A stretch of DNA of 64,000 nucleotides from an uncultured Bacilli bacterium (GTDB lineage: Bacteria; Bacillota_I; Bacilli_A; RF39; UBA660): contig CAKPMC010000001.1 in the NCBI GenBank assembly GCA_934167875.1, positions 13,634 to 77,633 of the forward strand, written 5' to 3'. The first letter of the stretch is position 1. Every line of letters starts with the position of its first letter. Position numbers and translations under genes: made by a program. A model generated the notes under the pieces. It made no database searches and was not told the DNA's origin. It saw nothing but the letters and a program-made list of their open reading frames with translations. Shown in pieces: positions 3,743 to 24,010 of this stretch.

Positions 3743-4345
3743 TTACACCCTTTCCCTTATTATTTTACGAATTTGTTTAACCTTAGTTTCTCCATAGATA
3801 CCAGAGTACTCTATTAACTCTTTTCTACAACGACCCTTTTTCATCAAGTGAATTTTTTCTAAGGTAAAACCAAAATGTTCTTCACGATAAATATTTATCA
3901 AACCACTAACACAATAATTATCAATAGCTATTCTTAAAGTTTCATCAAAATTGCTACTTTTAATTCCTAACCCTTTAGCAACCTCATTAGCCATAAAAGA
4001 AAAGTTTTTATCAACTGTATCATAATAACCAAGTGTAGGAATCAAAATATGACAGATACCACTAACATCAAGGTTCTCTATACCATCTAAATAAGAACTA
4101 AAATTTGTAAGAGACTCAGATTTTAAAATTCCATAATTATCTCTATGATAAATGCCATCTATTCTATCATCTTCAAAATTATATTTCTGCATTAAAATTT
4201 CTAATGACTCACAAGTTATTTCTTGATGTTCTCTCATATACTTAACAAACATAGCTTCTTTGTACTTAATAGCTTCATCACTTTTATGCTTTTTCAGGTA
4301 CTCTCTAATATCTTGTTCAGTAATTTCAAATTTTATATTTTCCAT
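3743..4345 (-). CDS. Hypothetical protein (200 aa) lying between the T-box leader and ileS
   Basis: The ORF is in the six-frame track. The true start is the internal ATG (MENIKFEIT) preceded by GGAGGG. The 29 residues ahead of it in the track ORF translate the T-box leader (LRWYR). There is a 3-nt gap to ileS. Confidence 0.6.
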   Translation of the reverse strand: MENIKFEITEQDIREYLKKHKSDEAIKYKEAMFVKYMREHQEITCESLEILMQKYNFEDDRIDGIYHRDNYGILKSESLTNFSSYLDGIENLDVSGICHILIPTLGYYDTVDKNFSFMANEVAKGLGIKSSNFDETLRIAIDNYCVSGLINIYREEHFGFTLEKIHLMKKGRCRKELIEYSGIYGETKVKQIRKIIRERV

Positions 4346-4582
4346 AAACCCTCCAATAAAAAAACGACTATTCTTCCATAAGGACGAATAATCGCGGTAC
4401 CACCTTAATTGATAATTATAAAAATTATCCACTTGAATCTGTAACGTAGATATACGGTTCTATCTTATCCATAAAACACAATCTTGAAAGTGATCTAAAT
4501 AATATTCTGTATATTCCTCTTTCACCAAATAAGGAACTCTCTAAATATTTCCTATTATTTCGTCTTTCGCACTTGTTTTAAC
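4346..4582 (-). promoter_or_regulatory. T-box riboswitch leader (tRNA-sensing antiterminator) controlling the hypothetical-gene/ileS operon
   Basis: On the minus strand there is an AGAGAG (AG-box) and GGTGAAAG, an F-box-like CCGTAT, and the conserved T-box AATTAAGGTGGTACCGCG at about 4395-4412. A terminator hairpin CGATTATTC...GAATAGTCG plus TTTTTTT follows immediately. Confidence 0.75.
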
Positions 4583-4633: not shown

Positions 4634-5767
4634 TTATTTAACATACTTCTTTATTTTTTTATTATCATCATCAATTAAATTAAGAATTTTTAATACTTTT
4701 AACGTTTTATCTAATGCTAATCTATCATCAACATCTTTTTCTATCAATAGCTCAAAATTATCAAAAGCCTTAATAGCATCCTGTCTATTCTTTATATTAG
4801 TACTTTGCATCTTTAAATATAAATGTTTTTGAACTTCTAAAATTTCTGTTGAAAATAAATCTTTTATTAAAACTTTATCCTCTGTTTTTAATTGTCCTTT
4901 ATTTTTATATTTATAATTACCTGTTTCAATACTATCATAACGCGAATTAATTCTTTTTCCTTGACAAGAAACATAACTATTAACATTAAGATTAGTAACT
5001 ATTTTAGCTTTTTCACTTTTATTTTCTAATTGCGTAATAGTTACCTTATCACTAAAATCAGAACTAACTATATGACCACTATTATCTACAGCCTTTTTAT
5101 AATTAGGATCAAGAGTTGCATTTATAATATTTCCATAAGCTCCAAGATTATAATAGATTTTCTTATCTTTTCTAGAAAATTTATCATATAAAGTATTAAT
5201 TAGTCTTAATTTAGTTTTATCATTATGATATTTTTTCATTAACTCTTTAATATACTTTAAGCCCATAGTTCTATTATTTTTTTCATAATAAGCTAATAGA
5301 AGTATTTCTTTTCTAAATTGCGGTATATCAGCTTCTTTAATCTCATCAGCAGTAATATCGTTATAATAAACTCTTGTATATATTTTATTAACAGCTAAAT
5401 TATGTGGAAAATTATTTCTTGTTTTTCTTATTTCGATTCCTTGAAGCAATAAAGTAGCATCATACTTTATAGATTTAAAACCATTATCATATTGACTATA
5501 AGAATTACAAATAGCTATAGATTGTCTTAATTTAACTTTATCATTATTTTTCTTACCAATCTTAAGTAATATCAAAGCCTTAAAATAATCAATATTAGAT
5601 GATGATAAGGAATAGCTATTACATATTTCCAAGGCCTCATCACATTTTCCAGCGTCTAACAATTTACGAATATTTTTTAAAGTTTCATTTTCATTATTCA
5701 CAAGAATCATCTCCAATTTAATTGCTATTATAATATAAAGTAAGGTAAAAGAAAAGAATAAACACAA
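4634..5767 (-). CDS. Hypothetical protein (about 360-377 aa) downstream of divIVA
   Basis: A long ORF with no motif I recognise. The start is either the TTG at 5767 or the ATG at 5710, where the GGAG abuts the ATG with no spacer. Confidence 0.55.
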   Translation of the reverse strand: MCLFFSFTLLYIIIAIKLEMILVNNENETLKNIRKLLDAGKCDEALEICNSYSLSSSNIDYFKALILLKIGKKNNDKVKLRQSIAICNSYSQYDNGFKSIKYDATLLLQGIEIRKTRNNFPHNLAVNKIYTRVYYNDITADEIKEADIPQFRKEILLLAYYEKNNRTMGLKYIKELMKKYHNDKTKLRLINTLYDKFSRKDKKIYYNLGAYGNIINATLDPNYKKAVDNSGHIVSSDFSDKVTITQLENKSEKAKIVTNLNVNSYVSCQGKRINSRYDSIETGNYKYKNKGQLKTEDKVLIKDLFSTEILEVQKHLYLKMQSTNIKNRQDAIKAFDNFELLIEKDVDDRLALDKTLKVLKILNLIDDDNKKIKKYVK

Positions 5768-6236: not shown

Positions 6237-6665
6237 TTACCAATTAAATTCTTCTTCTTGTTTTTCTTCTTTCTTTCCTTTTACATTCTTTGATGTATCA
6301 TCAGTTATTTTTCCTTCAATATTTACATTATTAGGTGCACATAAGAAAATACCTCCACCTAATTTCTGTAAACTACCATTCATAGCATATAAACTTCCAG
6401 TCAAAAAATCAACAATCCTTTTGGCTTGATCTGGAGTAACTCTTTTCAAATTAACTACAACTGTATTTCTTTTCTTTAAATAATCAGTAATTTGAGTACT
6501 TTCTGAATATGCACGTGGTTCAAATAAAATCATTTTGTTACTACCCAAATCGTTACCTGTAGCATCCTCTTTAGATACACTATAAAATTCTTCTTCTGTT
6601 CCCTCTACTGATGGAGTAGTTTCTTCCTCTACACCAAAAAACTTTTTCATACCATCAAATGCCAT
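6237..6665 (-). CDS. sepF: Cell-division protein SepF
   Basis: The C-terminal SepF/DUF552 core is present (VVVNLKRVTPDQAKRIVDFLTGSLYAMNGSLQKLGGGIFLCAP). GGAGGAGAGGG precedes the ATGGCA start at 6665. Confidence 0.85.
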   Translation of the reverse strand: MAFDGMKKFFGVEEETTPSVEGTEEEFYSVSKEDATGNDLGSNKMILFEPRAYSESTQITDYLKKRNTVVVNLKRVTPDQAKRIVDFLTGSLYAMNGSLQKLGGGIFLCAPNNVNIEGKITDDTSKNVKGKKEEKQEEEFNW

Positions 6666-6757
6666 TGCCCTCTCCTCCATATTCTTCTAACTATAAACTA
6701 TTGTAGCACAGATATCAAAAAAATAAAATATCTTTTTTAAGAAAAGATTAAAGTACT

Positions 6758-7510
6758 TCATAGTTCAAAATATTTTTTCAAAAATATAGTCTCAGAATAA
6801 TAGTTATTTTTTAAAATGAAATAATGATAATAACCTCTTTTCATTTGTTTAACTTCAAAAATAATTTTCTTTTTTGAAAAATTATAAGTATATAAATATC
6901 GCTCCATCAAAAACTTTTCAAAGTAAAAATTAGCTTTATGTATCTCAGAATAAATCTGAAATCCAAGTAAGATTAAAATCAATAATATTAATAAATTCCA
7001 ACTAAAAAAAGCAAAATATAAAAATAATATTAAATACAAAAAGTAACTAAAATAAATAATATATCTTTGACTATAATAATAAGAAAAAATTAAAAATAAT
7101 AATAGTTGTAACAGTCTACCACCATCTAATGGAAAAATAGGAAGTAAATTAAATAAAAGTATAAAGTAATGGTACATATAAAAATAAGTTGGAACTGATA
7201 AATTAGAAATTTTAATAATATAAACAAATACAGTTTGAATAATTGGTCCCATAATTAAAACTAAAAATTCTTTAAATATTGGGATATTAACATCGTATTC
7301 TAATTTAGAACATCCACCATAAGGATATATTTCAATTCTATTTAATTTGAATTTTAGTAGAATTCCTGTTAAACTGTGTCCTAGTTCATGTACCAAAATA
7401 ATAATAGTAAAATAAAATAAATTTTTAAAATGACCTGTTAATAAGCAAATGAAAGCTACTAAATAAAATAATGGATGAAAATATAGTTTATTCCAAATAT
7501 TCTTTATAAT
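6758..7510 (-). CDS. Site-2 (M50) zinc metalloprotease, SpoIVFB-like; probable non-canonical ATT start
   Basis: The HELGH zinc motif and the LLPIFPLDGGRLL motif are present. The first transmembrane helix (LYFHPLFYLVAFICLLTGHFKNLFYFTIIIL) is encoded in frame upstream of the track ORF. That 38-codon stretch has no ATG, GTG or TTG. GGGGAG sits 7 nt upstream of an ATT at 7508-7510, straight after the in-frame stop. Confidence 0.55.
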   Translation of the reverse strand: MIKNIWNKLYFHPLFYLVAFICLLTGHFKNLFYFTIIILVHELGHSLTGILLKFKLNRIEIYPYGGCSKLEYDVNIPIFKEFLVLIMGPIIQTVFVYIIKISNLSVPTYFYMYHYFILLFNLLPIFPLDGGRLLQLLLFLIFSYYYSQRYIIYFSYFLYLILFLYFAFFSWNLLILLILILLGFQIYSEIHKANFYFEKFLMERYLYTYNFSKKKIIFEVKQMKRGYYHYFILKNNYYSETIFLKKYFEL

Positions 7511-8102
7511 CTAAAAACTCCCCTGCTTTTTGAAAATACAAATATATTTCATTACTAATAGCTTCACCAAGCAGCTTACCCTTTTCTACATAATCGTATA
7601 TTTTATAGCTACTATTTTCCACTCCTACATACCATAAATCAATTCCATTTACTTGTTGAACTATAATAGTATTTCCATAATTATCTTTATTACCACTAAA
7701 CACAATAATACCACTTTCTAGAATTGGCACTAGGTAATTATTATCAACTGTTAGCTTTACTCCTTCATTATAATCTTCTTTAGCTTTATATGTAAGTTTC
7801 TCATCAAAAACCATTGCTGTATCAGGCGTTAAATTAGGTAGTGGAAAAATAGAGCCAAAATATTTATTATACATTTTATCAATTTTAGCAAAAGAAAAAT
7901 TAGTTTGATAAACGTTTTTATTAATCCATAATTTAAAACTAGGATTAACTTTTATAATACATAAGCACACTAATAAAATAATACCAGATATCAAAAGTCT
8001 ATTCAAAGCCAAAATCGAATACTTTTTAGTTACAACACGATTATCATCATTTTTTTTATTTAAATACTTTTGAACTAATCGATATTCATCCATCACTATC
8101 AC
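7488..8102 (-). CDS. Membrane-anchored degenerate M23/LytM-like protein, SpoIVFA-like
   Basis: An N-terminal TM helix is followed by a C-terminal M23-fold signature (GIIVFSGNKDNYGNTIIVQQVNGIDLWYVGV...GKLLGEA) that lacks the zinc-binding His residues. It lies directly upstream of the M50 protease. Confidence 0.5.
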   Translation of the reverse strand: MIVMDEYRLVQKYLNKKNDDNRVVTKKYSILALNRLLISGIILLVCLCIIKVNPSFKLWINKNVYQTNFSFAKIDKMYNKYFGSIFPLPNLTPDTAMVFDEKLTYKAKEDYNEGVKLTVDNNYLVPILESGIIVFSGNKDNYGNTIIVQQVNGIDLWYVGVENSSYKIYDYVEKGKLLGEAISNEIYLYFQKAGEFLDYKEYLE

Positions 8103-8116
8103 CTAATAAATAACTA

Positions 8117-8572
8117 TTAATGCTTTTTATTTTTTATTCCTAAAAAGTAACTTAAAACCATACCATATATAATATTTACAGTTAAATTAAGTAAAATAGA
8201 AGTATAAAAAAAAGAAATAGGATAATTATAAAGAAATAGTATTATTAAATATTTTAAAAAGATAAAAGTTAGTATTCCAATTAAAAACAATAATGTTTTA
8301 TTCTTAATACTTTTACCGATATAAATTATTTCTATATATACAACAAAAAATATTAATATATATACAAAATGTATATTACTAAAAAAGAAATCATAAATAA
8401 TAGAAATATAAAAATAATATTTAGTTTTCTTATTGTTCAAATTGTAAATCAAGAAAACTATAACCGTACTAACAAATAATAATGGCAAGTATACAAATAC
8501 AGGGTTGAATAAAGGAATAAAGTATGAAAGTAAAAAATCAAAAAGAAGAGAAATAATAAATATAAATATCAT
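8117..8572 (-). CDS. mreD: Rod-shape protein MreD (polytopic membrane protein)
   Basis: A 151-aa multi-TM protein immediately downstream of mreC with a 1-nt overlap. The call rests on position and size only. Confidence 0.5.
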   Translation of the reverse strand: MIFIFIISLLFDFLLSYFIPLFNPVFVYLPLLFVSTVIVFLIYNLNNKKTKYYFYISIIYDFFFSNIHFVYILIFFVVYIEIIYIGKSIKNKTLLFLIGILTFIFLKYLIILFLYNYPISFFYTSILLNLTVNIIYGMVLSYFLGIKNKKH

Positions 8573-9324
8573 TATATACTCCTATCAACAACACTAACAT
8601 AACGTAACTTATCAAAAGATGTATCATTTTTTACTTTAATATTTTTTTCTATTCCTAAAGAATCATAACTAATATCAATTACTTTTCCAATATAGATTCC
8701 ATCTGGATATACTCCGCCTAACCCATTAGTATAAACTGAATCATTTATATTAATATCGCTATCCTTAGAAACATTAATAATATTAACTGTTTGCGAAAGA
8801 TTGTCATAACCATTTAAAATACCATGATAAACACTATTATTAGTTCTAATATCAACAGCTATTTTCATATCAGAATCATTAGAGCTTAATAATTTAACCA
8901 TACTAAAATTATTGGAAACTTTAATAATTTTTCCAATTAATCCATCATTAGCTATAACAGCCATATTAGTCTTTATGCCATCATTAAATCCCTTATTTAT
9001 TTTAATTTCTTGATACCATAAATCATTTCTTTCAATAACGTCAGCATGAATAAATTGATAATCAGTACTATCAAGTAACAGCATCTTCTTTAATTCCTTG
9101 TTTTCATCTTCTAGTTCCCTATTTATTCCAGAAACAATATTACTATAATCAACCTTAACTTTAGGTATCAAAAAATTTTCCACTTGTGATACTGTATTCT
9201 TTATAATTCTCTCAAAAAAGAAATAATTAGTTCTTTTCTTATCTAAATAAATAAATCCTAGTAAAAATATAATAATTATAACTATCAACAAATATTTTTT
9301 AGCTACTTTTTTCTTATTATACAT
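8572..9324 (-). CDS. mreC: Rod-shape protein MreC
   Basis: An N-terminal TM and coiled-coil are followed by a beta-rich domain (NDGLIGKIIKVSNNFSMVKLL...YPDGIYIGKV) typical of MreC. Confidence 0.8.
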   Translation of the reverse strand: MYNKKKVAKKYLLIVIIIIFLLGFIYLDKKRTNYFFFERIIKNTVSQVENFLIPKVKVDYSNIVSGINRELEDENKELKKMLLLDSTDYQFIHADVIERNDLWYQEIKINKGFNDGIKTNMAVIANDGLIGKIIKVSNNFSMVKLLSSNDSDMKIAVDIRTNNSVYHGILNGYDNLSQTVNIINVSKDSDININDSVYTNGLGGVYPDGIYIGKVIDISYDSLGIEKNIKVKNDTSFDKLRYVSVVDRSI

Positions 9325-9337
9325 AATTCACCTTTAG

Positions 9338-10024
9338 TTATAAATTAATAATTTTTCCATCTTCATAAAAACTATAGTAATCATTATCACCAATTATAAC
9401 ATGGTCAATAATAGGAATACCATTTACTTGTCCTAACTCAACTAAAGAATTAGTCAAACGAATATCTTCTCTACTAGGATTTACATTTCCACTAGGATGA
9501 TTATGAACACAAATAATACCTGATGCACTACATAAATAAGCATTTTTAAATACTTCTCTTGGATGTACTACACTACGATTTAAAGTCCCCATAAACAATA
9601 ATTTCCTTTCAATCAATTCTTTTCTTTGATTAACATATAAGCAATAAAAATACTCCTGTTTTTTATCATATAATTGATACTTCATATAATTATAAATACT
9701 GTTTGAAGAAGTAAGTAATAACTTATCACTAAAGTTATCATTCATATAAATTCGTTTACCAAGTTCAACAACACTAAGTAAAGTAAGAGCTTGTACTAGT
9801 CCTATTCCTTTTATCTGCTGTAACTGTTCCTTAGTTGCATCTTTTAAATTATTTATCCCATTAAAATAATTAAGAACATTATTACTAATCTCTTTTACAG
9901 ATAGTTTGCCATTACCAGTTTTTAGTATTATCGATAGTAATTCTTCATTAGATAAATTTTCTTTTCCATATTCCATTAACCTTTCTCTAGGTCTTTCTTT
10001 TAGTGGTAAATCTTTTACCTTCAT
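9338..10024 (-). CDS. radC: RadC-like JAB-domain protein (UPF0758)
   Basis: The JAB metalloprotease motif HNHPSGNVNPSREDIRLT and the helix-hairpin-helix-like N-terminal region are present. The gene sits upstream of mreC, as in the Bacillus maf-radC-mre cluster. Confidence 0.85.
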   Translation of the reverse strand: MKVKDLPLKERPRERLMEYGKENLSNEELLSIILKTGNGKLSVKEISNNVLNYFNGINNLKDATKEQLQQIKGIGLVQALTLLSVVELGKRIYMNDNFSDKLLLTSSNSIYNYMKYQLYDKKQEYFYCLYVNQRKELIERKLLFMGTLNRSVVHPREVFKNAYLCSASGIICVHNHPSGNVNPSREDIRLTNSLVELGQVNGIPIIDHVIIGDNDYYSFYEDGKIINL

Positions 10025-10065: not shown

Positions 10066-10518
10066 CTAAGGATTTAAAACAATTTCATCATAAGTAGCTA
10101 AAACTGTCTTTAAGACCGAATTAACTTCATCTATATTTTTACTACTTTCTAGTAAAACATCATACTGATTAAGCTGATTTATAAAATCAGTATTATTCAA
10201 ATTACTATGTTTAATATAAATATCTATTCCTTTGTCTTTATACATTTTTTTAATATTTTCAGCTATTTTTAAATTACCAGTCATTCCAATATAAGAATAG
10301 TATTTATCCCCTTCTTTTACTGTAATCTTAGTATCAATTCCATCTATCTTAGTATTACTAACATCATTATTAGTATAGGCACCACACTGTAAATAATAGA
10401 TATTATCATTTTCACTAAATACTAGTCCATTAACACCATATTGATTAAAAATAAATGAAGCACATAAATATCCAAGTAAAACTGCACATATTATAGGAAT
10501 AATTAAATTCATCTTCAT
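10066..10518 (-). CDS. Hypothetical membrane-anchored protein (150 aa)
   Basis: An ORF with an N-terminal hydrophobic segment and no recognisable motif. Confidence 0.45.
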   Translation of the reverse strand: MKMNLIIPIICAVLLGYLCASFIFNQYGVNGLVFSENDNIYYLQCGAYTNNDVSNTKIDGIDTKITVKEGDKYYSYIGMTGNLKIAENIKKMYKDKGIDIYIKHSNLNNTDFINQLNQYDVLLESSKNIDEVNSVLKTVLATYDEIVLNP

Positions 10519-13136: not shown

Positions 13137-13817
13137 TTAATAACTAATTTTCTGTGTTAATTGATAATCTGGAAAATATTCATTCATAATTTTACTACAA
13201 TTTTGAACATAATCAACTGACATTTTTTTCTTTTTCCAATTAACCCAACCATTATACATACCAAAAATATCATCAAGTGTATCAACATCATCTCTACTAG
13301 TAATATCATTTAATAAAAATAAACATGCTTCAGTGTTCTTTATTGGATCATTTAGTATTTCATCTTTAGTAAAACCAAGTTTAGTATTAATATAAGATAA
13401 ATTAGCTTTATTAATTTGAAATAATCCATAATCATTAGTAGCAGATATCACGCCATTAGTATTCCAAGTACCACCAGATTCTTGTTCACCAATAGTAAGC
13501 ACTATTTGATATGGTATACCATAATCATCTGACAATCTTTTTATTTCATCTTCTAATTCATTACTTAATGCCATTCCAGAATAATTATTTTCGCTAAATG
13601 TAATAGTAGAAGAATAATTATTGTTAATACAATCAGATAAATCAAAATTTAGATTAGTAAAACTATCAAAGTTAACATGTGATAATGAGAATTTAGAGGT
13701 AGCCTCACTAGCTAAACTTTCATGATTTGATGAACTAAAAATGGAAAACACAAAAGCAAAATAAAATAAATTACAGTATAATTTAGAAACAGCTTTTTTC
13801 TTCTTGTAATAATTCAT
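13137..13817 (-). CDS. Secreted lytic-transglycosylase-like (SLT-domain) protein
   Basis: An N-terminal signal peptide is followed by GEQESGG and YGLFQIN, which resemble the catalytic Glu and GLMQ motifs of SLT domains. Confidence 0.5.
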   Translation of the reverse strand: MNYYKKKKAVSKLYCNLFYFAFVFSIFSSSNHESLASEATSKFSLSHVNFDSFTNLNFDLSDCINNNYSSTITFSENNYSGMALSNELEDEIKRLSDDYGIPYQIVLTIGEQESGGTWNTNGVISATNDYGLFQINKANLSYINTKLGFTKDEILNDPIKNTEACLFLLNDITSRDDVDTLDDIFGMYNGWVNWKKKKMSVDYVQNCSKIMNEYFPDYQLTQKISY

Positions 13818-21570: not shown

Positions 21571-21795
21571 AAAAAAACTCCTCCTTACATAATAAGGACG
21601 AGCAAACCCGCGGTACCACCTTAATTCATTCAAAAAGAATACCCTCAATTACTTAAATAACGGTAAGTACCGTAACTAGTTACTAAACTCACTAATTATA
21701 CTCCATCGCTACATATTTATATTCATTTACTTATTTTCACCAATCATAAGCTCTCTACAAAAATTCTATAAATACCTCGATTTCATCGCAACAAC
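21571..21795 (-). promoter_or_regulatory. T-box riboswitch leader controlling the HD-gene/valS operon
   Basis: On the minus strand there is an AGAGAG, a GGTGAAAA, an F-box CCGTTA, the T-box AATTAAGGTGGTACCGCG, and a terminator CTCGTCCTT...AAGGAGGAG plus TTTTTTT. Confidence 0.8.
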
Positions 21796-22353: not shown

Positions 22354-23274
22354 CTAATTTTCATATTGATGTGGTGTGTCATAATTGGATTTATTCGTAT
22401 TATTTTTTAAGTAGAAAATAATTTTTTCTATATATAAAACCACATTAGTAACTTGTTTAATCTTAGAATATTCAGCTAATTCTAAATCAATTTTATCTGG
22501 TATAAGAAGAAGAGATAATAATAAATATAATTCTTCTTTTTTTAGTGGATATTTTAATTGATATATTTCTAGTAAACTATCTAAAGAAATATCTAAAAAA
22601 CTATTTCTATATAAAATTTCTAAATCATATATAGGAAGATCAATTCTTGATTTATCCCAACTAATAAAATATAGATCACTATTTTCTATTAAATGACTAC
22701 TACTTAAATTACCATGGATATAAGCGCATCTAATTCTATGCTCATTTTTAATAATAGAATACCACTTTTCTATATATTCTCTACTTTGTCTTATAGCTAA
22801 ATAAATATTAGAAATATTTCTAATTAATAAATAGTTGGCTGGCGTCATATATACTTCTAATTCTATCATATCTTGAATATCGTTATAATATTTATATATT
22901 TTATCTAGTTTATTTATAGTATTCTCATATATTTCTTTTACATAGTCATCATCCACATTTTTATAGAAAGTAGTTTTAGTATGCAAAATACTAACTAGAT
23001 ATATTAAATCTTCTAATCTTTGATCTACTGGTATATTATTATCTTCAACGTAATCTGTTAATTGAAATTTATCTAGATTACTAGAGTAAATATTAGGAAA
23101 ATTATTAAAATTACGCAACTGGAGATAATTAAAAAAATCTTGATTTTTATTTACTTCTTTTAATACATATTTTTTATTATCAGTAGTAATAATAGTTGCC
23201 ATACCCTTACGTTTTATAGATTTAGGTTTTATATTATAATAGTCAAGTATTTCTTGCCTATTCATTATTAGCAC
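22354..23274 (-). CDS. CotS/YsxE-like spore-coat protein (kinase-like fold)
   Basis: Kinase-like remnants are present (IHGNLSSSHL, then WDKSRIDLPIYDL). It lies immediately downstream of the SpoVID-like gene with a 17-nt overlap, mirroring Bacillus spoVID-ysxE. Confidence 0.5.
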   Translation of the reverse strand: MLIMNRQEILDYYNIKPKSIKRKGMATIITTDNKKYVLKEVNKNQDFFNYLQLRNFNNFPNIYSSNLDKFQLTDYVEDNNIPVDQRLEDLIYLVSILHTKTTFYKNVDDDYVKEIYENTINKLDKIYKYYNDIQDMIELEVYMTPANYLLIRNISNIYLAIRQSREYIEKWYSIIKNEHRIRCAYIHGNLSSSHLIENSDLYFISWDKSRIDLPIYDLEILYRNSFLDISLDSLLEIYQLKYPLKKEELYLLLSLLLIPDKIDLELAEYSKIKQVTNVVLYIEKIIFYLKNNTNKSNYDTPHQYEN

Positions 23275-24010
23275 ATGGAATTATTAATTTACTACCAATT
23301 TTAATATCATTTAAATCATTATAATTCTGTAATAGTTCTCGTGTTACTTTATATTTATCCATAATAAACTCTAAAGTATCATTTTCTCTAACTATATATA
23401 CATAGTAAGTAGAAAATGTTTCTTCATTAGAAGCAATTGATGAAAAAATTGAACCAACACTAGTAGGAGTAACTACTCCTGTTTCTTTCTTTGTTTCTAC
23501 TACTTTTTGAGCTGGTGTTTCATCATTAACATTTAAATCTTCTTCTATTTCTTTAGCTAATTTTGATAAAGGATTAACTTCATTATCTTTAAATTCTAAT
23601 TTTTCTTTAGTATCATCAACTTCAACAGGAACAGGAATAGCTAAATCTTCAGTATTATCTTCTAGTACCTCTCTTACCATTTGTTTTTCTTCTAAACCTT
23701 CAATATCTATTTCGACATTTATTTTTAAATCTTCTTCATTTATTATTTCAAAATAAAAGTCTCCAACAACAATTTCCATATTATCCAAATCATATTTATC
23801 ATCAATATTTATAACGAAAGGAAGCTTATAGTGAAATTCCTCTTCTATTTGACTAGCATCAGTCATTTTATAACGACCATCTACTAAAATATCGCCACTT
23901 ATCTCATTATCATCTTTTAATTTTAAATTATGTGTAACTTCAATATCAGTTACTTCCGCAATCATAGTTTTAAAAGTAATTGTTTTTGTAAAAGGTACAA
24001 CCTTCTTCAT
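23258..24010 (-). CDS. SpoVID-like spore morphogenetic protein with a C-terminal LysM domain
   Basis: The C-terminal LysM is YVYIVRENDTLEFIMDKYKVTRELLQNYNDLNDIKIGSKLIIP. There is an acidic middle region, and the N-terminal domain is loosely similar to the SpoVID N-domain. Confidence 0.55.
   Translation of the reverse strand: MKKVVPFTKTITFKTMIAEVTDIEVTHNLKLKDDNEISGDILVDGRYKMTDASQIEEEFHYKLPFVINIDDKYDLDNMEIVVGDFYFEIINEEDLKINVEIDIEGLEEKQMVREVLEDNTEDLAIPVPVEVDDTKEKLEFKDNEVNPLSKLAKEIEEDLNVNDETPAQKVVETKKETGVVTPTSVGSIFSSIASNEETFSTYYVYIVRENDTLEFIMDKYKVTRELLQNYNDLNDIKIGSKLIIPCANNE

Follow-up and report, generated by a model that had tools for sequence, protein, structure and literature searches.

A SpoIVFB-type intramembrane protease gene in an uncultured Bacilli bacterium, probably translated from an AUU codon within the tail of its upstream partner gene

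We analyzed a 64,000-nucleotide (nt) stretch of DNA (hereafter, the window; positions 13,634 to 77,633 of contig CAKPMC010000001.1, assembly GCA_934167875.1) from an uncultured Bacilli bacterium, in which a gene for an M50 intramembrane metalloprotease overlaps the end of a gene for an M23-like protein. Our results suggest that the M50 gene probably encodes a full-length SpoIVFB-type protease with six transmembrane (TM) segments, and that its translation is initiated from an AUU codon (7510-7508) directed by a GGGGAG motif in the tail of the M23-like gene. As proposed, the gene spans 6758..7510 on the minus strand (as do all features for which window coordinates are given below) and comprises 250 codons, from ATT to a TAA stop.

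The layout of the junction is as follows. The 5′ part of the M50 frame reads CAG GGG AGT TTT TAG, followed by ATT ATA AAG AAT ATT TGG AAT AAA CTA TAT TTT CAT CCA. The in-frame TAG (7511..7513), composed of positions 2-3 of an M23 Leu codon (TTA) and the G of an Asp codon (GAT), closes the frame upstream, and the proposed initiation codon ATT (7508..7510), identified by reading the frame and by finding the same codon in relatives, is the first codon after it. The Shine-Dalgarno (SD)-like GGGGAG (7518..7523), formed by M23 Gly-Glu codons, lies 7 nt (TTTTTAG) 5′ of the ATT. The M23-like open reading frame (ORF) ends with a TAA at 7490-7488, and the M50 frame is +1 relative to it. The two genes thus share a 23-nt dual-coding overlap (7488..7510), read as DYKEYLE and a stop in the M23 frame and as IIKNIWNK in the M50 frame. 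These coordinates agree with the first-pass annotation, which had placed an ATT right after an in-frame stop, 7 nt from GGGGAG in the tail of the M23-like gene.

The same annotation had pointed to 38 in-frame codons upstream of the called ORF that lack ATG, GTG, and TTG, and reading the frame confirms this. Codons 1-38 (7397..7510), which encode the N-terminus and TM1 (IIKNIWNKLYFHPLFYLVAFICLLTGHFKNLFYFTIII; assigned from conserved residues and the alignment to SpoIVFB TM1), contain none of the three. ORF finders and gene callers use a TTG (Leu39, 7394..7396) as the start, in the context ATT ATT ATT then TTG GTA CAT GAA CTA GGA CAC. This TTG has no SD upstream, lies two codons before the HELGH zinc-binding and catalytic motif (codons 41-45, 7376..7390, located by translation and alignment), and would be an artefactual start in our proposal. 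We dropped the absence of start codons as a statistical argument: in this 26%-GC sequence, ATG, GTG, and TTG occur in frame at a frequency of 0.035 per codon, which gives P ~0.26 for 38 codons without any. The telling feature is the stop immediately ahead of a conserved N-terminus, not the lack of a start codon alone.

Alignment evidence indicates that the 38 codons are genuine coding sequence. When the extended protein is compared with the solved structure of Bacillus subtilis SpoIVFB (8vjl/8vjm), its residues 7-229 pair with residues 9-237 (E 2.5e-27; phmmer, 8vjl_A), so that the alignment covers the SpoIVFB catalytic core including TM1. Within it, NKLYFHPLFYLVAFICLLTGHFKNLFYFTIIILVHELGH, which corresponds to TM1, pairs with LKIHVHPFLWIIAALGLLTGHMKALLCLLLIVLIHELGH. 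Across 40 aligned full-length homologues, H12, P13, F15, Y16, F28, F34, and I38 are at least 90% conserved, and protein-level conservation of the extension holds among lineages that are 30-66% identical. Because TM1 and TM6 flank the active-site entrance in the SpoIVFB cryo-EM structure (PMC11486902), TM1 is unlikely to be dispensable. The homologues do not begin at the HELGH helix, a possibility that had been put forward for checking, since SpoIVFB residue 9 pairs with residue 7 of the extended protein. This alignment, together with the TAG that precedes codon 1, confines the start to six codons (ATT ATA AAG AAT ATT TGG).

The description of the two genes as a SpoIVFA/SpoIVFB-like M23-M50 pair holds up, for SpoIVFB by sequence match and for SpoIVFA by architecture and position. 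The M50 protein matches Peptidase_M50 (PF02163; 1.1e-15, above the cut-off), with HELGH at residue 41 and NLLPIFPLDG at residue 121. For the CBS domain, no Pfam match was found at E ≤ 0.01, and the alignment to SpoIVFB stops at its residue 237, with about 20 window residues beyond. The upstream gene (7488..8093; 201 amino acids [aa]) encodes one TM segment, a hydrophobic stretch at about residues 24-57, followed by an M23/LytM domain (Pfam Peptidase_M23, 1.2e-08; residues 112-184 of the 204-aa ORF translation). The protein contains 0 His overall and, lacking histidine, cannot be a zinc M23 peptidase. By its architecture and position, it is best described as a SpoIVFA-like protein with a dead LytM domain. 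It has no sequence match in the PDB, and neither it nor the M50 protein matches an NCBIfam model at E ≤ 0.01. Its start is likely the ATG at 8093 (MDEYRLVQKYL, 201 aa), where the ORF list has a GTG at 8102; relatives begin with MEEYKSVQKYL and are 198-204 aa long.

To compare the junction among relatives, we combined three sources. A scan of a genome collection with a single protein returned one locus (L001), a metagenome scan returned mostly distant relatives, and for closer relatives, the encoding DNA was fetched for individual homologue clusters. A contig from another sample and sequencing run (L102) is 99.4% identical to the window (6 mismatches in 1005 nt) and has an identical junction. 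L001, the sole relative from the genome collection, is a metagenome-assembled genome (MAG) labelled Candidatus Scybalousia sp. and is 62% identical. The Bacillota genus formerly called Candidatus Scybalousia is now Ca. Alloscybalousia, Bacilli incertae sedis (NCBI). In L001, the junction reads GAAGGAGAATTCC TAG ATT ACA AAG, and a run of 19 codons lacks a canonical start. A stop followed by ATT occurs in 7/7 homologue clusters that are called N-truncated and for which DNA was fetched: P0052 (L002-7; TAA ATT ATC, first canonical codon inside HExxH), P0065 (L008-11; first canonical codon after HExxH), P0047 (L096/97), P0070 (L098/99), P0087 (L100/101), P0001 (L102, junction identical to the window), and the P0011-like L001.

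The same arrangement extends to the distant metagenome relatives L013, L016, L019, and L021 (31-39% identity). Other loci vary at the junction: L017 has TAA AAT ATC, L022 and L025 have TAA ATT ATG with a canonical ATG as the second codon, and L092 has the same ATT after the stop but a TTG at codon 6. At least 16 codons without a canonical start are found in L001, L002-7, L008-11, L096/97, L098/99, L100/101, L013, L016, L019, and L021, which are 31-62% identical to the window protein. Overall, stop-then-ATT is present in about 12 other lineages of 31-66% identity, beyond the window and its near-identical contig. Where these ORFs are complete on their contigs, they are intact (247-256 codons), and HExxH and NxxPxxPxDG are kept in every one of them, including L019, which runs off the contig end. 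Altogether, the aligned sequences indicate that the ATT arrangement is conserved in relatives and that the ORF is under purifying selection.

Dual coding can explain how a canonical start was lost. In the junction alignment, the M23 frame ends in K-(D/A/E/S)-G-(E/K)-(F/Y)-(L/I/V)-(D/N)-Y-(K/Q)-(E/D)-Y-(L/I)-x-stop, a C-terminus typical of M23 domains, and the same bases read (stop or TTG)-I-I-K-N-I-W in the M50 frame. The M50 codon that precedes the ATT takes its first two bases from positions 2-3 of the M23 Leu/Ile/Val codon and its third from position 1 of the Asp/Asn codon that follows. Consequently, a TTG start could be turned into a stop by a change that is synonymous in M23. TTA, CTA, or GTA followed by GAT or AAT yields TAG or TAA (14 lineages), CTT or ATT followed by GAT yields TTG (L023, L024, L026, L094, L095), and every locus aligned obeys this rule. 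In a rough neighbor-joining tree, the stop-ATT and TTG-ATT lineages are interleaved, and therefore the switch occurred more than once or reverted. AT pressure would favor the M23-silent change that turns a TTG start into a stop, and initiation would then fall to the adjoining ATT under the same SD. The swap from TTG to ATT may cost little because, in an Escherichia coli reporter, UUG and AUU are both 6-8 times weaker than AUG and GUG (PMC3592434).

The SD at the window ATT is comparable to that of ordinary genes. Its predicted duplex with the 16S 3′ end has an energy of -8.4 kcal/mol, compared with -9.5 ± 2.75 kcal/mol for the 36 window genes that start with ATG and a mean of -2.4 kcal/mol for random positions, of which 2.4% are as strong. 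The called TTG at 7396 gives +3.4 kcal/mol, i.e., no SD. Among the relatives with ATT, the duplex ranges from -5.3 to -10.0 kcal/mol. SD-to-start spacing is 7-9 nt at the ATT junctions and 5-10 nt at the other window genes. No significant local RNA structure was found at the junction (z = -0.40). In L022 (2483-2490) and L025 (634-641), where ATG is the second codon, the M23 Gly is lost and no SD is present (duplex ~-2 kcal/mol). Start-codon strength and SD strength thus appear, from these alignments, to trade off across lineages.

Several points weigh against initiation at this AUU, or at least against reading too much into its conservation. In this AT-rich genome, the M23 Asp/Asn (GAT/AAT) and Tyr (TAT) codons dictate all three bases of the ATT, and the SD is made of conserved M23 Gly-Glu/Lys codons. 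Since M23 codons fix these bases, the conservation of ATT and SD is not independent evidence of selection on initiation, and we dropped the conservation of the ATT as a sign of selection on the start. The SD here consists of a 4-nt core plus G-U pairs, which is not the "extended" SD of the non-canonical starts of Staphylococcus aureus. Codon 2 (ATA or ATC) is a near-cognate alternative in most lineages, and with AAT-ATC in L017, the exact codon may vary. We infer AUU use by exclusion and by comparison among lineages, and on these grounds it is favored over the alternative that had been raised beside it, a sequencing frameshift.

That alternative, broadened to any sequencing or assembly error or to a pseudogene, draws on the metagenome-type, AT-rich source of the sequence and on the T5 run that adjoins the stop. 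It is close to negligible in probability, given that an independent sample has an identical junction and that many assemblies and lineages share the layout, some of them lacking a homopolymer, e.g., L001 (GAATTCCTAGATT), and have intact ORFs and conserved catalytic motifs. We therefore rejected a sequencing frameshift. Transcriptional slippage on the T5 run was likewise ruled out by L001, which has no homopolymer at the site. An alternative genetic code was set aside, since TAG and TAA both occur at the pre-ATT position and both close M23-like ORFs in relatives. If the sequence is sound, the true start could still be the internal TTG (7396) or a later codon, giving a shortened protease without TM1 and making the upstream 38 codons a decaying relic. 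Gene callers choose this TTG, and TTG is a legal start codon. We consider this reading very unlikely: the duplex ahead of the TTG is unfavorable, the 38 codons are conserved at 30-66% identity with H12, P13, F15, and Y16 near-invariant, the SpoIVFB substrate entrance is lined by TM1 (PMC11486902), and HExxH is still preserved where the first canonical codon falls inside it (L002-7) or after it (L008-11).

The remaining alternatives keep the N-terminus and differ in how ribosomes reach it. The least improbable among them, though still unlikely, is that codon 2, an AUA at 7507-7505 and an ATC in most relatives, replaces AUU as the start or shares that role with it. Both ATA and ATC belong to the near-cognate codons, in L017 an ATC at codon 2 follows an AAT at codon 1, and the canonical ATG at codon 2 in L022 and L025 suggests that this may have been the ancestral start position in some branches. 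However, L001 has ACA there, which leaves ATT alone available, and the SD spacing to codon 2 would be 10-12 nt, less favorable than 7-9. Because only one residue of the product would change, we count this as the same mechanism in a variant form. A +1 shift of M23-translating ribosomes within the 23-nt overlap, producing an M23-M50 fusion protein, would be compatible with the M50 frame being +1 to M23 in every lineage and with the conserved overlap of 17-23 nt. It is nevertheless highly improbable, because the codons at the M23 stop vary (GAA TAA, CTC TAA, GGA TAA, ATT TAG) with no conserved slippery or stop-adjacent site, no stimulatory RNA structure was seen (z as above), and in relatives that share the layout but have TTG or ATG, the M50 gene plainly has a start of its own. 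The topology would also be awkward. The ectodomain of SpoIVFA is extracytoplasmic (PMC6242693), whereas SpoIVFB has six TM segments and a cytoplasmic C-terminal CBS domain (PMC11486902), which would place the N-terminus of the six-TM protein in the cytoplasm as well, and the fusion would join the two. Finally, ribosomes could start at an upstream in-frame ATG and then read through the TAG/TAA, or stop and restart on the next codon. An ATG lies four codons before the stop in L013, L016, L017, L019, L022, and L025 (M23 Lys-Asp/Asn-Gly or Asn-Asn-Asp codons), and in the window one lies 12 codons before the TAG. Against this, L100/101, L021, and L030 have no ATG, GTG, or TTG in the short upstream segment of the frame, the proximal ATG is absent in the window, L001, L002, L008, and L092, and M23 coding accounts for the upstream ATGs, none of which has its own SD. 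With no readthrough signal identified, we give this route hardly any credence.

In the six loci with the proximal ATG, 4-codon mini-ORFs (MGLF, MGSI, MESF, MINI, or MIII, each followed by a stop) begin about 15 nt upstream and end where the ATT begins. These mini-ORFs may simply result from M23 coding, or they may serve to stop and restart ribosomes.

If the AUU is used as we propose, protease synthesis would be low-level and IF3-sensitive. Ribosomes translating the M23 gene, or terminating at its stop 17-20 nt past the ATT, would probably help initiation, and the protease would be less abundant than its inhibitor-like partner. Coupling to M23 translation is plausible by analogy with other closely spaced cistrons, at which reinitiation and de novo initiation both contribute (PMC3592434). 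We also considered that selection may have shaped the AUU start as a control device instead of merely tolerating it. Repeated swaps of TTG for a stop plus AUU in the dual-coded M23 tail would then tie protease synthesis strictly to IF3 status and to ribosomes completing M23, keep the protease:partner ratio low, and represent convergent evolution of non-canonical initiation in an intramembrane protease operon. We regard this as a doubtful, speculative extension of the proposal.

The comparison with known AUU and AUA starts is informative in both directions. These comprise infC (AUU in E. coli, AUA in S. aureus), E. coli pcnB (AUU), cvfC1 of S. aureus and B. subtilis (AUU), and ccpN (AUA) (PMC13009471; PMC3592434). 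In S. aureus, Ribo-Ret mapped conserved AUU/AUA starts to infC, cvfC1, and ccpN, all preceded by a strong SD; relative to AUG, these starts yielded ~10% of the output in poor medium, and in rich medium ccpN reached as much as 30% (PMC13009471). As in these genes, the M50 AUU lies at a proper distance from its SD and is conserved in related species, and lowered, IF3-sensitive initiation is expected. Unlike them, the M50 start falls within the 3′-terminal part of the upstream gene that it overlaps, would originate from a synonymous change in that gene (TTG to stop), and has an ATT state that occurs here and there among lineages without being fixed family-wide. Unlike infC, the M50 gene has no evident autoregulatory logic.

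The closest functional parallel is the spoIVFA-spoIVFB operon of B. subtilis, in which SpoIVFB is an S2P/M50 protease that cleaves pro-sigma-K and SpoIVFA is its inhibitor and anchor. The window pair shares with it SpoIVFB as the best match of the M50 protein among solved structures, the HExxH and NxxPxDG motifs, an upstream partner with one TM segment and a His-free M23/LytM domain, and a position downstream of radC-mreC-mreD. In both, the second gene begins before the first has ended, and in L028, a Bacillus-like metagenome relative, a TTG overlaps the M23 stop. B. subtilis SpoIVFB has 288 aa (UniProt), and the deposited chain has 314 residues. In contrast, the window M50 protein has 250 aa, a shorter C-terminal region, and no Pfam CBS match. 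The window also differs from the B. subtilis operon in having no mreB or minCD between mreD and the pair, and in the ATT start codon. Considered more generally as coupled overlapping cistrons, for which PMC3592434 cites the scanning model of coupling and reinitiation of Adhin and van Duin, the pair has the M50 start within ~20 nt of the M23 stop and the SD embedded in upstream coding sequence. It departs from them in that the M50 start is non-canonical and lies 17-20 nt upstream of the M23 stop, and coupling is putative. Judged by titles and abstracts, searches of the SpoIVFB literature listed nothing on point about the start codon or the overlap with spoIVFA.

The junction has a measurable effect on annotation. 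Among the best homologue clusters that begin with M, 63 of the 118 are called N-truncated, 44 starting inside TM1 and 19 after HExxH. The public protein P0001, 98% identical to the window protein, is called from the TTG equivalent to 7396. The 19 clusters called downstream of HExxH (P0052, P0054-56, P0059, P0062-65, P0067, P0070-72, P0076, P0080, P0090, P0100, P0106, P0109) include one with 171 member sequences as well as NCBI MAG entries. Consequently, an automated survey would score the SpoIVFB-like protease of this lineage as lacking TM1 or as catalytically dead; once ATT is permitted after the stop, the enzyme is again a normal one of 250 aa. Non-canonical AUU initiation is already known; what appears new is the gene family, the breadth in a clade of uncultured gut Bacilli, and the explanation by a synonymous toggle. 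If AUU is used, a membrane protease joins the very short list of conserved AUU-initiated Bacillota genes. The locus illustrates how overlapping frames and AT mutation pressure could interact, with a silent Leu change deleting the start of a neighbor and a near-cognate codon taking over, and it offers a simple reporter-testable case for weak-start, coupled translation.

The pair lies in a gene neighborhood which we take to resemble the B. subtilis map tig...spoVID-ysxE-valS...radC-mreBCD-minCD-spoIVFAB. Along the direction of transcription, the order is tig, lon, spoVID-like, ysxE-like, T-box, HD-domain ORF, valS, htpG, proS, radC, mreC, mreD-like, M23, M50, sepF, divIVA, and ileS. Upstream of the pair are radC (9338..10024; Pfam RadC, 2e-43), mreC (8572..9324; Pfam MreC, 7.1e-36), and a polytopic 151-aa ORF in the mreD position (8117..8572), and all relatives have an ORF of 151-161 aa in this slot. 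The next gene downstream of M50 is sepF (6237..6680; Pfam SepF, 2.6e-26). The order radC-mreC-mreD-spoIVFA-spoIVFB described in the first-pass annotation is therefore present, with mreD assigned by position alone, as the 151-aa ORF has no Pfam or NCBIfam match.

The first-pass annotation had also taken the spoVID-ysxE-like genes, together with the M23-M50 pair, to point to a sporulation-capable lineage. The spoVID-like and ysxE-like ORFs (22354-24010) overlap by 17 nt, and their synteny with valS and lon is like that of B. subtilis. The matches on which the claim drew do exist. The ysxE-like ORF matches TIGR02904 along the entire profile (1.4e-29) but scores 103 bits where the cut-off is 264, and the spoVID-like ORF has a LysM end and a sub-threshold SPOCS match (E 0.004). 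As these scores are far below the cut-off or partial, the capability to sporulate is unproven. Given that spoIVFA, spoVID, and ysxE are sporulation genes essentially confined to Bacilli (bioRxiv 10.1101/2022.02.25.481979), a sporulation heritage of the lineage is plausible from the gene content.

Elsewhere in this neighborhood, a T-box leader (RF00230; 108 bits, E 6e-23) is found at 21591-21795, upstream of the HD-domain ORF, a 160-aa ORF, and valS. The HD-domain ORF is listed from a TTG at 21648, a start that would make it overlap the T-box; its real start is probably an ATG 26 codons in, with an AGGAGG SD 9 nt upstream. Between divIVA and ileS, two ORFs, at 4634-5767 (377 aa) and 3743-4432 (229 aa), have no significant Pfam or NCBIfam match, and this slot holds different genes in relatives, such as YlmH-like, cdaA, and mutY. 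Upstream of radC, a 150-aa ORF (10066-10518) has no Pfam match and a weak match to the C-terminal region of the NCBIfam FtsN model (E 3e-4), and relatives carry an ORF of 147-175 aa in the same slot.

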